A stretch of DNA of 64,000 nt from Escherichia coli (GCF_003334785.1 NZ_QOWV01000006.1), one strand, 5' to 3'. Positions 41,351 to 46,128 are shown, counted from the first letter of the stretch. Made by a program: numbers and translations. Notes: generated by a model from the letters alone, not told the origin.

Positions 41351-42499
41351 TTAGCGAGCCACTCGAAGGCCGTTTTCAACACCGCGTGAGAACACGACCT
41401 GCCAGAGCTGAATATCACGGGCGCGGAAAGCACCTGCACAGGCATTCAGATAATAGGTAAACATTCGTTTAAAGCGTTCACTATAGTTATCCGCAATTTC
41501 TGGCCATGCGGCGAGGAATCGTTCATACCACGCCATCAACGTAGTATCGTAATCAGCACCGAAGTTATGCCAGTCTTCCATCACAAAGTGGGGTTCGCTG
41601 GACTGAGCAATCTGGCGTACAGAGGGCAGGCAACCGTTCGGAAAAATATATTTATTAATCCAGGGATCAACATTCAGATCGGTTTTTTTCGAACCGATAG
41701 TATGGAGCAGGAATATGCCTTCCGGTTTCAAATTACGATCCACCACCGCAAAATAGGTATCGTAATTTTTCGGTCCGACGTGCTCGAACATCCCCACAGA
41801 AACAATACGATCAAACTGGTCGTTCAGGTCACGATAATCTTGCAGCAAAATGGTGACATCCAGGCCTTCACAGCGTTCCTGAGCCATTTTTTGCTGTTCG
41901 GCAGAAATGGTGACGCCCACCACGCTTACGTCATAATTAGATGCCATGTAGTGTGCCAGTCCGCCCCAGCCGCAGCCAATATCCAGTACGCGCATCCCTG
42001 GTTTTAACTGCAATTTTTCACAAATCATTTTGAGCTTCGCCTGCTGGGCAGATTCCAGATTATCGGCATCTTTCCAGTAAGCGCAGGAATATTGCATGAA
42101 GGGATCAAGCATGCGGCTGAACAAGTCATTACCCAAATCGTAATGCTCTTTGCCGACTATCCAGGCACGTTTTTTACTCTGCAGATTGAAGAGACGAGCG
42201 CCGGCAATACGCAGCGTGTCTTTGAAATGATGGGGGAGTTGGTTCTCGAGACCTGCGCGTAAGACTTTGCTAAAAAACATATCCAGTCGGTCACATTCCC
42301 ACCAGCCATCCATATAACTTTCGCCTAACCCCAAAGAGCCTTCTTGCAGAACGCGTTTAAAAAAATCGGGGTTTTTCACACGAATATCCGCCGGGGCAGA
42401 ACCGTTAATGGCTATACCGGCACGGCTAAGTAATTCGTTGGCGATACGGTACCAGTTGTCATCCGGTACACTGACTTCTTCTATACACGATGAACTCAT
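41351..42499 (-). CDS. cfa: Cyclopropane-fatty-acyl-phospholipid synthase
   Basis: ORF track 382 aa; SAM-methyltransferase motif VLDIGCGWGG. Confidence 0.93.
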   Translation of the reverse strand: MSSSCIEEVSVPDDNWYRIANELLSRAGIAINGSAPADIRVKNPDFFKRVLQEGSLGLGESYMDGWWECDRLDMFFSKVLRAGLENQLPHHFKDTLRIAGARLFNLQSKKRAWIVGKEHYDLGNDLFSRMLDPFMQYSCAYWKDADNLESAQQAKLKMICEKLQLKPGMRVLDIGCGWGGLAHYMASNYDVSVVGVTISAEQQKMAQERCEGLDVTILLQDYRDLNDQFDRIVSVGMFEHVGPKNYDTYFAVVDRNLKPEGIFLLHTIGSKKTDLNVDPWINKYIFPNGCLPSVRQIAQSSEPHFVMEDWHNFGADYDTTLMAWYERFLAAWPEIADNYSERFKRMFTYYLNACAGAFRARDIQLWQVVFSRGVENGLRVAR

Positions 42500-42789
42500 A
42501 GTTTCTCCATCACTGGTCGGTGATCAGAACCTTAAAACAGCGTAGACGCTTTTTGGGCTTTGTGAGAAATCTCGCAGAAAAAACCGCGAGTCTATAATCC
42601 GACGTAGAACAGAGGGAAAGGAGGAACCCTTGCCGAAATGACTATCCATAGTGAGTCGGGAACGATCCTGTCCCCGTAAAAACATAATATTTATCGTAGC
42701 TTTAACAACTCGAAATTAGTATAGGCCGCTAATTTCAATCATACAACAAAATTTTGTTAGCAGCCTAAGTATAAGTATATCGATATAGA

Positions 42790-44001
42790 TCAGTGTGATT
42801 CGCTATGAGCGACTTCGGCATTGCCATGATTCTGGCAGCCAACTTCTTCACAACGTTGCATCATGTAACCCAGCGCGACCAGCACTACTGTTGATAACAT
42901 CACGCTGGTGGTGGTGAGCAATGGCGTGCTGATACTGATCAGCCAGGAAACTACCAGACTTGCGAGGAAGCACAGACCCAGTTGAAGAGTGTTCTGCAAC
43001 GCTGCGGCGCGACCAGTTGCGTGTGGGAAGGGACGCAGCGCCTGGGCGACAACAATAGGGTAGATCGCGCCATTGGCAATCGCCATCACACAGAATGGGA
43101 TCAGGATTTCGACCAGCGACACATGGCTAATGAAGCCCGCAGCCCAGGTCGCAATGACGCTGACAGCAAACAGCACCAGCAACCACGGTAATAACTGCTT
43201 GCCTTGCCATTTCTGCAGCGCGGCGCGACAGCCATAACCACCAATCAGAAACGCGATAGTTTGCGGGACATAACTTAAACCAATAACTGCCGGGCTGTAG
43301 CCCATTTCACTAAGGATGAACGGTGAACCGGTCAGCCATGCAAAAAAACTGGCTGAACAGGCTGCGTATATCAGCACGTTGCCGCGATAGGTTTTAGAAC
43401 GTAGCAGGTCGGTAAAGGTCAGACCATCCTGACTATTGTTACGGGCCTTCGTCGTGGGTTTGAGCCAGAAAATAGGCAGAATCAGCACCACGGTAATGGC
43501 AAACAGGGTGGCGAAAATCGCCTGCCAGGAAAAATGGACCAGCAGCCAGCTTCCTAACAGAGGAGCCAGTGCCGGAGATAGACCCACCAGCGGCATGATG
43601 GTCGCAAAAATACGGTTAACTTTCTGTGAAGGATAATAATCTGTCACTAATGCTTGCCAGATAACCGCCGCGGCGCAGACACCCACAGCCTGTACAAAAC
43701 GCAATACCAGCAGCGTAGCGGCGTTTTCTACCCACAGCATCCCCAGACTACCTAACGCAAAAATTGTCAGGCCGATTAATAATACCGGTTTACGACCATA
43801 ACGGTCGGAGAGCGGCCCCCACAGAAGCTGGGCTGCGGCAAAACCGGCAAGGAACAGACTAAGGCTGGCACTGACAGCAGACGCAGGCGTTTGCAGGTCG
43901 GCCTGTATGGCGGCGAAAGCAGGCAGATACATATCGGTTGCCAGAAAACCGAGTACGCTCAAACCCGCCAGCCAGACTAAAAATCTTTTCCCAGGTTGCA
44001 T
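42790..44001 (-). CDS. punC: MFS transporter (purine nucleoside transporter PunC / YdhC)
   Basis: ORF track 403 aa; divergent from the LysR regulator gene. Confidence 0.88.
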
Positions 44002-44113
44002 GTATATTCTCTAAATCTCTCAATTAAACACCGCCGCAAAGTGTAGGGAGTGAAATTAGTGTTGTGAAACGGTAATATTTGATGACTGGTTTCAAAAATT
44101 TTGCAGGCAGACT

Positions 44114-45046
44114 ATGTGGTCAGAATATTCACTCGAAGTTGTTGATGCGGTAGCGCGTAATGGTAGTTTTAGCGCTGCGGCACAGGAGCTGCATCGCGTT
44201 CCTTCTGCGGTCAGCTATACCGTGCGTCAGCTGGAAGAGTGGCTGGCGGTGCCGCTCTTTGAACGACGGCACCGTGATGTGGAGCTGACCGCTGCTGGAG
44301 CGTGGTTTCTCAAAGAAGGGCGCTCTGTTGTCAAAAAAATGCAGATCACCCGCCAGCAATGTCAGCAGATAGCGAACGGCTGGCGCGGTCAGTTAGCTAT
44401 CGCAGTGGATAATATTGTCAGGCCAGAACGTACACGGCAGATGATCGTTGATTTTTATCGCCATTTTGATGATGTCGAACTTCTTGTCTTTCAGGAAGTG
44501 TTCAACGGTGTCTGGGATGCGCTTTCCGACGGGCGCGTGGAACTGGCGATTGGCGCAACACGCGCGATTCCGGTAGGCGGTCGTTATGCCTTCCGGGATA
44601 TGGGGATGCTAAGCTGGAGTTGCGTTGTTGCCAGTCACCACCCGCTGGCGTTGATGGATGGCCCGTTCAGCGATGATACGTTGCGCAACTGGCCGTCGTT
44701 GGTGCGCGAAGACACCTCGCGAACGCTACCTAAACGTATTACCTGGTTGCTGGATAACCAAAAAAGAGTTGTCGTGCCTGACTGGGAATCATCGGCAACC
44801 TGTATCTCGGCAGGATTATGCATAGGGATGGTGCCAACACATTTCGCCAAACCGTGGCTTAATGAGGGGAAGTGGGTAGCATTAGAACTGGAAAACCCCT
44901 TTCCGGATTCGGCATGTTGTCTGACATGGCAGCAAAATGATATGTCGCCTGCGTTAACCTGGTTGCTTGAGTATCTCGGCGATAGTGAGACGCTGAATAA
45001 GGAGTGGCTGCGGGAGCCGGAAGAGACTCCCGCAACGGGTGATTAA
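44114..45046 (+). CDS. punR: LysR-family transcriptional regulator (PunR / YdhB)
   Basis: ORF track 310 aa; N-terminal LysR HTH. Confidence 0.88.
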
Positions 45047-46068
45047 CGACGATAGTCGCGGAACGGGCCGTCAGCCACGGAGCGGCGTTCAATCAAGCGC
45101 GGATGCACTTCAATAGACTGCGGTTCTTCACGTTTGTTGACGATACGATCCAACAGCATGTTGAACGCTGTTTCACCCAGCGAATCTTTTGGCTGATGGA
45201 TCGTGGTCAGCGCCGGCGTAAAATAGCGCGCGTTGCGCACGTTATCATAACCGATCAGCGAAACATCCTGCGGGACGCGCAGGCCCATTTCATCAGCAGC
45301 ACAAAGTGCGCCCATTGCCATGATATCGCCACCACAGAAGACGGCAGTAGGGCGATGCGGCTGCGACAGGATTTGCTGCATGGCGCGATAACCGGATTCA
45401 GGTTCAAAGTCACCCTGCACAATCCAGCTTTCCGGCACCTTGATCATCGCTTCTTCCATCGCCTTCATAAAACCGGCAAGGCGGCCTGCGCCGGTGTTAC
45501 GTTCCAGCGGGCCGGGGATGACGCCGATTTCGCGGTGACCGCGTTCAATCAGATAACGCCCGGCCATGTAGCCGCCTTCGAACGCGTTATCAATGACCGC
45601 ATCGGTGAAGTCAGCTTTTGCTTCACCCCAGTCCATGACCACCATTGGGATATGGCGATACTCTTCCAGCATCGCCAGCAACGGCTCTGGGTACTCAGAA
45701 CACATCACCAGCAGACCATCGACGCGTTTTTGCGCCATCATCGACAGATAAGCCCGCTGTTTCTCAAGATTGTTCCACGCATTGCCCAGAATCAGGGTGT
45801 AACCTTTCTGGAAGCAATTTTTTTCAACTGCTTCAATGATCTCGGCAAAATAGGCCGCTTCGCTGCTGGTCGCCAGCAAACCGATAGACTTGGTGTGGTT
45901 AACCTTCAGGCTACGCGCCACCGCGCTAGGGGAGTAGTGTAATTCTTTAATCGCTGCCCACACGGCGTTGCGCGTTTCTTCAGCGACGAAACGTGTTTTG
46001 TTGATCACGTGTGACACAGTTGTAGTGGAAACGTTTGCTCGTTTCGCTACATCTTTTATTGTTGCCAT
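45043..46068 (-). CDS. purR: Purine repressor (LacI family)
   Basis: ORF track 341 aa [33 protein letters not shown]... Confidence 0.95.
46027..46042. promoter_or_regulatory. PurR operator inside the purR coding region (autoregulation)
   Basis: Minus strand ACGAGCAAACGTTTCC matches the PurR box core AAACGTTT. Confidence 0.65.
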
Positions 46069-46112
46069 TCCATTTCACTCCAGACCCTAACTTCAGCTCC
46101 TGCAAAATCGCA

Positions 46113-46128
46113 AGGTAAACGTTTGCCT
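46113..46128. promoter_or_regulatory. PurR operator in the purR 5' leader (autoregulation)
   Basis: Minus strand AGGCAAACGTTTACCT, 45-60 nt upstream of the purR ATG. Confidence 0.7.

Follow-up and report, generated by a model that had tools for sequence, protein, structure and literature searches.

The punR and purR genes of Escherichia coli converge at a junction that leaves no intergenic DNA between them. The window analyzed here is a 64,000-nucleotide stretch of an E. coli genome (GCF_003334785.1, NZ_QOWV01000006.1), and positions are counted along it unless MG1655 is named. The punR gene (ydhB) lies at 44114..45046 on the + strand and encodes the LysR-type activator of punC, a protein of 310 amino acids; its stop codon is the TAA at 45044..45046. 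The purR gene lies at 45043..46068 on the - strand and encodes the purine repressor, a protein of 341 amino acids, and its stop codon is the reverse complement of 45043..45045. Both genes are supported by open reading frames, NCBIfam models, and RefSeq annotation, and purR is also supported by structures in the PDB. The sequence at 45038..45049 reads GGT GAT TAA CGA. The two TAA codons are contained in the TTAA at 45043..45046, read from both strands, and have 45044..45045 in common, so that the genes share two stop-codon bases and four coding bases. The initial annotation had reported this overlap of stop codons, and it is confirmed by the sequence, by the open reading frames, and by the RefSeq annotation of MG1655, where purR at 1737844..1738869 (+) and punR at 1738866..1739798 (-) have the identical 4-bp overlap (MG1655 position = 1783912 - window position). 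A 2.2-kb query around the junction found a match in 5425 of 5426 complete E. coli genomes, with punC, punR, and purR annotated in that order.

The overlap is genuine and not an artefact of annotation, since there is no in-frame punR stop in the window ahead of 45044 and the end of PurR is that of the crystallized protein. Residues 2-341 of PurR match the crystallized E. coli PurR over their whole length (1bdi, 1pnr, 1qpz, and others), as far as the terminal ...FRDYRR, and the match to the NCBIfam equivalog NF007979 covers positions 1-341 of 341. PunR scores 527.9 bits against the equivalog NF008294, for which the cut-off is 345, and its residues 1-300 align with the 300 positions of the model. 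The last ten residues of PunR fall outside this model and hence outside the conserved core of the family. Homology-based revision of the gene ends had been named as the result that could overturn the overlap, and it leaves both ends in place.

Overlaps of this kind are common, and this one is already annotated; it is known both in kind and for this locus in databases and the literature. The modal length of prokaryotic overlaps is 4 bp, and four 4-nt sequences, CTAA, TTAA, CTAG, and TTAG, can end both genes of a convergent pair (Lillo & Krakauer 2007, Biol Direct 2:22, PMC2174442). In that study the E. coli annotation contained 58 convergent overlaps, and 58 genomes together contained 1890, of which 1218 were 5 nt or longer, so that about a third were 4 nt or shorter. 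The phase statistics agree with overlaps that arose when a stop codon mutated and translation read through, and the authors had already made the point that any terminator of such a pair must sit within the coding sequence of the partner (PMC2174442). punR and purR both code for proteins, meet tail to tail from opposite strands, and share exactly 4 nt, which places them in this YTAR class. They have the TTAA tetramer, the modal length, and probably the same origin by stop loss followed by read-through, and nothing essential sets them apart. The initial annotation had treated the TTAA as a peculiarity; it belongs instead to the textbook modal class of convergent overlaps. What the present analysis adds to the class is a reconstruction lineage by lineage and a hidden stop that is guaranteed by the purR TAA and the CGY codon before it.

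The arrangement of the two genes is conserved among relatives of E. coli, and the distance between their stop codons is not. A scan of GTDB species genomes for PunR gave 257 matches, and the closest 80 of these, all from Enterobacteriaceae and thus biased toward close relatives, were used for comparison. The two genes are adjacent and convergent in 78 of the 78 loci among these best 80 matches that hold both. Stop-to-stop distances were counted in 79 loci from the same set, the window included, with the punR frame anchored at residue 285 of PunR. The distance is -4 in 27 loci (23 with TTAA and four with TTAG), +1, +3, or +5 in five, +14 to +22 in 46, and +45 in one; long overlaps were found in none of the 79. 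A coding overlap is therefore absent from 52 of the 79 lineages drawn from the best 80 of 257 matches, and it is also absent from E. coli VCSW7. PunR has 310 amino acids in every -4 locus and 303 in 47 of the 79 loci, including the 46 with spacers of 14 to 22 nt. The taxon distribution, used here in place of a rooted tree, suggests that the 303-amino acid form is ancestral.

The end of purR supplies a stop codon to punR wherever the frame is right. Past the purR stop, the + strand always reads YTA followed by A or G in the 79 loci from the best 80 of 257 matches, because purR has CGT or CGC as its last codon. This thus always sets up a TAA or TAG, out of frame, for one of the three punR frames, and for this reason chance is not really at issue in the appearance of the overlap. 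A spacer of 17 nt sets the punR frame on the hidden stop, and loss of the old stop then adds seven codons, taking PunR from 303 to 310 residues. The -4 state occurs with three registers of a hairpin that lies at the junction and is described below: register 33 in Escherichia, most Citrobacter, and S. enterica arizonae; register 36 in Trabulsiella, Silvania, Leclercia, and Pluralibacter gergoviae; and register 34 in Pseudocitrobacter. The tail peptides of these groups are unrelated to one another. The three registers and the unrelated tails indicate that the -4 overlap arose several times independently.

One isolate of E. coli shows how close the two states are. VCSW7, a soil isolate that diverges further than any other E. 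coli in the collection, has an annotated punR of 303 amino acids and a 17-nt spacer. A single base in 86 nt separates it from the window, G45023T, which changes GAG (Glu304) to TAG. Codon 304, at 45023..45025 on the + strand, lies in the hairpin loop, and it is here that punR stops in the 303-amino acid lineages. The G45023T allele is a singleton among 5424 genomes. Since this base alone separates the two states, the spacer and the overlap are one point mutation apart and the step that gives rise to such overlaps can be seen directly, and the shorter VCSW7 protein shows that a natural isolate can lose the seven-residue tail of PunR.

A stable hairpin is found at the junction in all of the lineages that were compared. 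In the purR-sense RNA of the window it occupies 45007..45036 on the - strand, with arms at 45036..45025 and 45018..45007, a loop at 45024..45019, and 12 pairs with G-U counted. The + strand version has a stem that pairs 45009..45016 with 45027..45034. In E. coli the hairpin starts 6 nt past the purR stop and lies inside punR codons 298-308. A 76-nt segment of the - strand folds with -28.6 kcal/mol (z -4.97), and the punR-sense (+) fold is weaker (z -2.11). Strand asymmetry was not relied on to decide whether the hairpin works for one mRNA or the other; the - strand is the stronger in E. coli, and the preference is inconsistent across taxa. The palindromic hairpin could serve punR, or both genes, and not purR alone. 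Among the best 80 of the 257 PunR matches, it was seen in 79 of 79 loci. Across the lineages its stem starts between -3 and +10 nt from the purR stop, with a median of 5, and its folding energy has a median z of -4.05 against shuffled sequences, 68 of 77 values being below -2.

The sequences of the arms vary in a way that preserves pairing. The 5' arm of the inverted repeat corresponds to the PunR codons L-R-E-P, and the loop holds the stop codon in the 303-amino acid lineages. The common form has the arms GGGAGCC and GGCTCCC, and the corresponding pairs are GGGTGCC and GGCACCC in Trabulsiella, GGACACCC and GGGTGTCC in Kluyvera, GCGAACGC and GCGTTCGC in Pseudocitrobacter, and GGAGCAG and CTGCTCC in Phytobacter and Kosakonia. 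The third base of the proline codon forms a G-C, A-T, T-A, or C-G pair according to lineage, a pattern that is partly fitted since each sequence was given its own minimum free energy structure. A plain MAFFT alignment of the junction misaligned the 3' arm, and loop lengths differ, so pairs were counted in sequences grouped by register instead. The unfitted test of covariation used 34 ungapped register-36 sequences, which are phylogenetically related. In this related set 86.2% of the cells are paired, as against 28-48% in slid registers, and five of the ten pairs have changes on both sides. The 28 double-change cells compare with 7.4 +/- 1.9 in shuffles, and the covariation score of 0.229 compares with 0.089; none of 500 shuffles reached the observed value for either measure. 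In the -4 lineages translation takes in the 3' arm, as GCT or ACT followed by CCC GCA (A/T-P-A), and it follows that the RNA structure shapes the tail of PunR and not the reverse.

The hairpin resembles neither a known RNA family nor a canonical terminator. An Rfam cmscan of 42000..48000 (E<=1) gave no match at 44990..45060, so that no REP element or other known RNA family was identified at the hairpin. A canonical intrinsic terminator has a GC-rich stem followed after 0-2 nt by a U-tract of 7-9 nt, and the hairpin does not have this form. A U-tract past the stem is absent from both strands in almost all lineages, most of which carry one to three U, and a consensus terminator scan did not call the junction hairpin. 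The same scan of 43500..46700 found nine terminator-like sites where 3.8 +/- 1.8 were expected from shuffles, most of them within coding sequences on the - strand, as at 45241..45227 in purR.

The hairpin coincides with the 3' end of the purR mRNA. Term-seq data list a primary purR 3' end, classed as antisense to ydhB, at MG1655 1738907 (+) in LB at OD 0.4 with 1560.89 reads and at 1738908 (+) in M63 at OD 0.4 with 889.975 reads (Adams et al. 2021, eLife, PMC7815308, supplementary file 1). Coordinate conversion places this end at 45004..45005 on the - strand of the window. The 61-nt strings of the Term-seq table hold 50 nt upstream, the 3' end itself, and 10 nt downstream, and this layout was checked with SgrS, where position 51 is the last U of the terminator. 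The purR mRNA thus ends ...GGCUCCCGCAGC-C-A, 2-3 nt past the last pair of the stem and without a U-tract. The end is 38-39 nt beyond the purR stop and 42-43 nt, or 14 codons, inside punR. The sequence that follows the stem, CACUCCUUA, has three U in nine nucleotides. The purR end is not listed for LB at OD 2.0, and the bicyclomycin (Rho) table of the same study has no purR or ydhB row (PMC7815308). A literature search for bicyclomycin together with purR returned only an unrelated paper on SgrS targets.

These data alter two statements of the initial annotation, that no intergenic terminator can exist and that each transcript must extend into the other gene. Intergenic DNA is indeed absent. A covarying hairpin within the punR codons nevertheless coincides with the purR 3' end, and a junction without intergenic DNA can still carry a 3'-end element. 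The extension of purR into punR is borne out by the mapped end. For punR the statement holds only in the trivial sense of at least 3 nt; the Term-seq table of PMC7815308 contains no punR-sense 3' end, and neither purR nor ydhB appears in the SMRT-Cappable-seq tables.

The RNA on the two sides of the junction differs in composition. Past the hairpin, at 44855..45003 on the - strand, the purR-sense RNA is C-rich, G-poor, untranslated, and unstructured, with a C/G ratio of 1.58-1.72 over 60-150 nt and a fold z of +0.41, and it is a candidate Rho-loading region. The punR-sense RNA past the punR stop has a C/G ratio of 0.82-0.98. Nothing distinctive in the way of a terminator or structure was found for punR within the antisense of purR (z -1.09 over 150 nt), where the lone consensus match, at 45166..45182, has a stem of only 5 bp.

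Overall it appears, with a probability of about 0.7, that the TTAA overlap is a near-neutral by-product of a shift of the punR stop, and that the hairpin is the selected element and sets the purR end by way of Rho and trimming. The starting state would have been a PunR of 303 residues with its stop in the loop of the hairpin, 14-22 nt from the purR stop. Once the loop stop had been lost, and given a spacer of suitable phase such as +17, ribosomes would have read seven more codons and stopped at the TAA or TAG made by the complement of the purR stop (TTA) together with the following A or G, giving a PunR of 310 residues and a 4-nt overlap. Such gains would have happened several times independently, and one base would be enough for reversal, as in VCSW7. 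The hairpin would be a junction element under selection that in E. coli has come to lie within the last codons of punR, and it would define the steady-state 3' end of the purR mRNA. RNA polymerase would pass the hairpin into the antisense of punR, Rho would probably terminate transcription diffusely on the untranslated C-rich RNA, and PNPase and RNase II may then trim the transcript back to the protective stem-loop.

The route by Rho and trimming is favored because the end is precise and lies just past the stem, there is no U-tract, and the downstream RNA is C-rich and unstructured. Rho-dependent transcripts have been found to end precisely after stable stem-loops that lack a U-tract; termination is diffuse and downstream, PNPase and RNase II trim the RNA back to the hairpin, and rut sites lie just downstream (Dar & Sorek 2018, NAR 46:6797, PMC6061677). 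The purR end is like these in lying 2-3 nt past a stable stem, without a U-tract, and with C-rich RNA downstream. Unlike the stem-loops of that class, the purR hairpin is inside the coding sequence of the partner gene, its 3' arm encodes T/A-P-A of PunR, and the parts played by Rho and the exonucleases are deduced from the features of the sequence.

An alternative is that the hairpin is an overlapping bidirectional terminator, so that both mRNAs end on the flanks of one structure. In the model described for convergent E. coli pairs, for which a stem-loop is needed, the hairpin pauses both polymerases, head-on collisions block read-through, and trailing polymerases release the complexes (bioRxiv 10.1101/2022.10.23.513370). 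In favor of this model, the junction has a palindromic hairpin exactly at the convergent boundary that is conserved with covariation, lacks a U-tract in both directions, and is a poor intrinsic terminator either way. It differs from the bidirectional terminators in that only the purR-side end is documented and the hairpin precedes the E. coli punR stop. A punR mRNA that ended past the hairpin, at about 45036-45037, would lack the stop at 45044-45046; with the stop codon beyond it, the hairpin cannot mark where a productive punR message ends in the -4 lineages. The tables that list the purR end supply no punR counterpart, and the model applies best to highly expressed pairs, whereas punR and purR are regulators with modest Term-seq reads (1561 and 890). 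Termination by collision is therefore regarded as unlikely.

The excludon concept is said to go back to Sesto and colleagues in 2013. It offers a reading in which the overlap and the 3' antisense read-through are themselves selected, with transcription of one regulator (purR) damping the other (punR) through interference or RNase III cleavage of the duplex and so coupling repression of purine synthesis to purine nucleoside uptake. The transcripts of purR and punR, as opposite-strand neighbors, do overlap, and the pair is explicitly listed among the 165 convergent excludons of MG1655 (ExcludonFinder, NAR 2025, PMC12288877). Both genes act in purine metabolism (PMC8376909), the purR mRNA is antisense to 14 punR codons, and convergent adjacency is universal in the loci compared from the best 80 of 257 matches. 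However, the coverage criterion of ExcludonFinder is satisfied almost automatically by overlapping expressed coding sequences, so the listing is not independent evidence, and shared ancestry may be enough to account for conserved synteny inside one family. The stable, mapped overlap is only about 42 nt, and the coding overlap, missing from most of the 79 lineages and from VCSW7, is not a conserved feature. Mutually exclusive expression and RNase III processing would be hypothetical for purR-punR, and the paper on PunR reports no such coupling (PMC8376909). The chance that the overlap was selected as an excludon seems rather remote.

A related idea starts from the hairpin lying upstream of the punR stop in the -4 lineages. 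A punR mRNA terminated there, or trimmed back that far, would be a message without a stop codon, production of PunR in E. coli would need read-through into the antisense of purR, and the arrangement could be a conserved coupling device whose seven-codon tail is recurrently selected and not neutral. This is very unlikely, and if it were true the junction would be an excludon-like post-transcriptional switch between two purine regulators.

Another proposal is that the hairpin and the downstream CACUCCUUAUUC form a weak Rho-independent terminator of purR. The stem is stable and GC-rich and is followed by some U (three in the first nine nucleotides, and UUAUU at +8 to +12), and intermediate cases with reduced U content were noted by Dar and Sorek (PMC6061677). 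The mapped end, however, is 2-3 nt past the stem and not 7-9 nt into a U-run, the consensus scan made no call, and the tail is constrained by the punR codons N-K-E-W-L, a U-tract being missing in almost all lineages. Weak intrinsic termination is highly improbable. The chance that one gene truly ends earlier and that the overlap is an artefact is negligible: the last ten residues of PunR lie beyond the family model and most genera have a PunR of 303 residues, but translation cannot end earlier in the open frame of the window, the C-terminus of PurR is that of the crystallized protein, the MG1655 annotation concurs, the 310-residue form recurs in 27 loci, and the sequencing error at 45023-45046 that this would need is ruled out by identity over thousands of genomes.

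The overlap carries little weight as a discovery, as it was annotated, its class was described in 2007, the pair is in the list of excludons, and the purR end was mapped in 2021. The additions made here are small and consist of the lineage reconstruction, the one-base variant of E. coli, and the covariation of the hairpin. The junction is useful as a worked example in which a spacer of 17 nt and an overlap of 4 nt are interchanged by one mutation, with a natural isolate of E. coli carrying the alternative state, and in which the constraint on a coding tail comes from an RNA hairpin and not from the protein. Annotators and genome engineers should note that the structure at the purR 3' end would be broken if punR were recoded with synonymous codons or tagged at its C-terminus. 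The general lesson is that missing intergenic space is not a missing 3'-end signal.

Several other features of the locus were observed. The locus is wholly absent from one of the 5426 genomes, and one extra copy is located on a plasmid. In E. coli HB101 (NZ_CP178859.1, 2140801..2144224) the 2.2-kb query is 100% identical and split into two pieces over 3424 bp with an annotated IS30 transposase, a sign that IS30 has inserted at some place within punC-punR-purR of this laboratory strain. In E. coli B27 (NZ_AP027424.1) the match is confined to the 43% of the query that covers purR, and punR and punC appear to have been deleted or replaced. Most of purR is also covered in antisense by a 279-amino acid ORF on the + strand, at 45103..45942, whose frame is one of the two open to punR read-through. 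No sign that it is a gene was found, and its appearance is that of an ordinary antisense frame with few stops.

Further mapped RNA ends are found toward the start of purR and beyond it. Two 3' ends on the - strand were recorded in both LB and M63 (PMC7815308), one at 46079 (MG1655 1737833), 11 nt upstream of the purR start, and one at 45960 (MG1655 1737952), 108 nt inside the purR ORF. The end at 46079 is about 40 nt downstream of the PurR-box-like sequence GCAAACGTTTAC, and both ends may represent premature termination or processing tied to purR autoregulation. The intergenic region between purR and ydhP has a full-length match (396.5 bits) to STnc550, which Rfam classes as an sRNA, at 46069..46459 (+). 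This match contains the cydH (ynhF) ORF at 46367..46456 (+), which encodes a 29-amino acid subunit of cytochrome bd-I (MSTDLKFSLVTTIIVLGLIVAVGLTAALH), and a very abundant primary ynhF 3' end with 655,382 reads was mapped to MG1655 1737422 (-), or 46490 (+) in the window (PMC7815308). STnc550 therefore has the look of a coding transcript, the cydH mRNA, and not of a non-coding RNA.

The one locus with a 45-nt spacer among the 79 loci from the best 80 of 257 matches belongs to Enterobacter sp. kpr-6. Its hairpin is longer, with 20 pairs and -30.1 kcal/mol, and an extra or different GC-rich inverted repeat, GCAGGCCTGC...GCAGGCC, is present between punR and purR. This repeat may be an inserted palindromic element.
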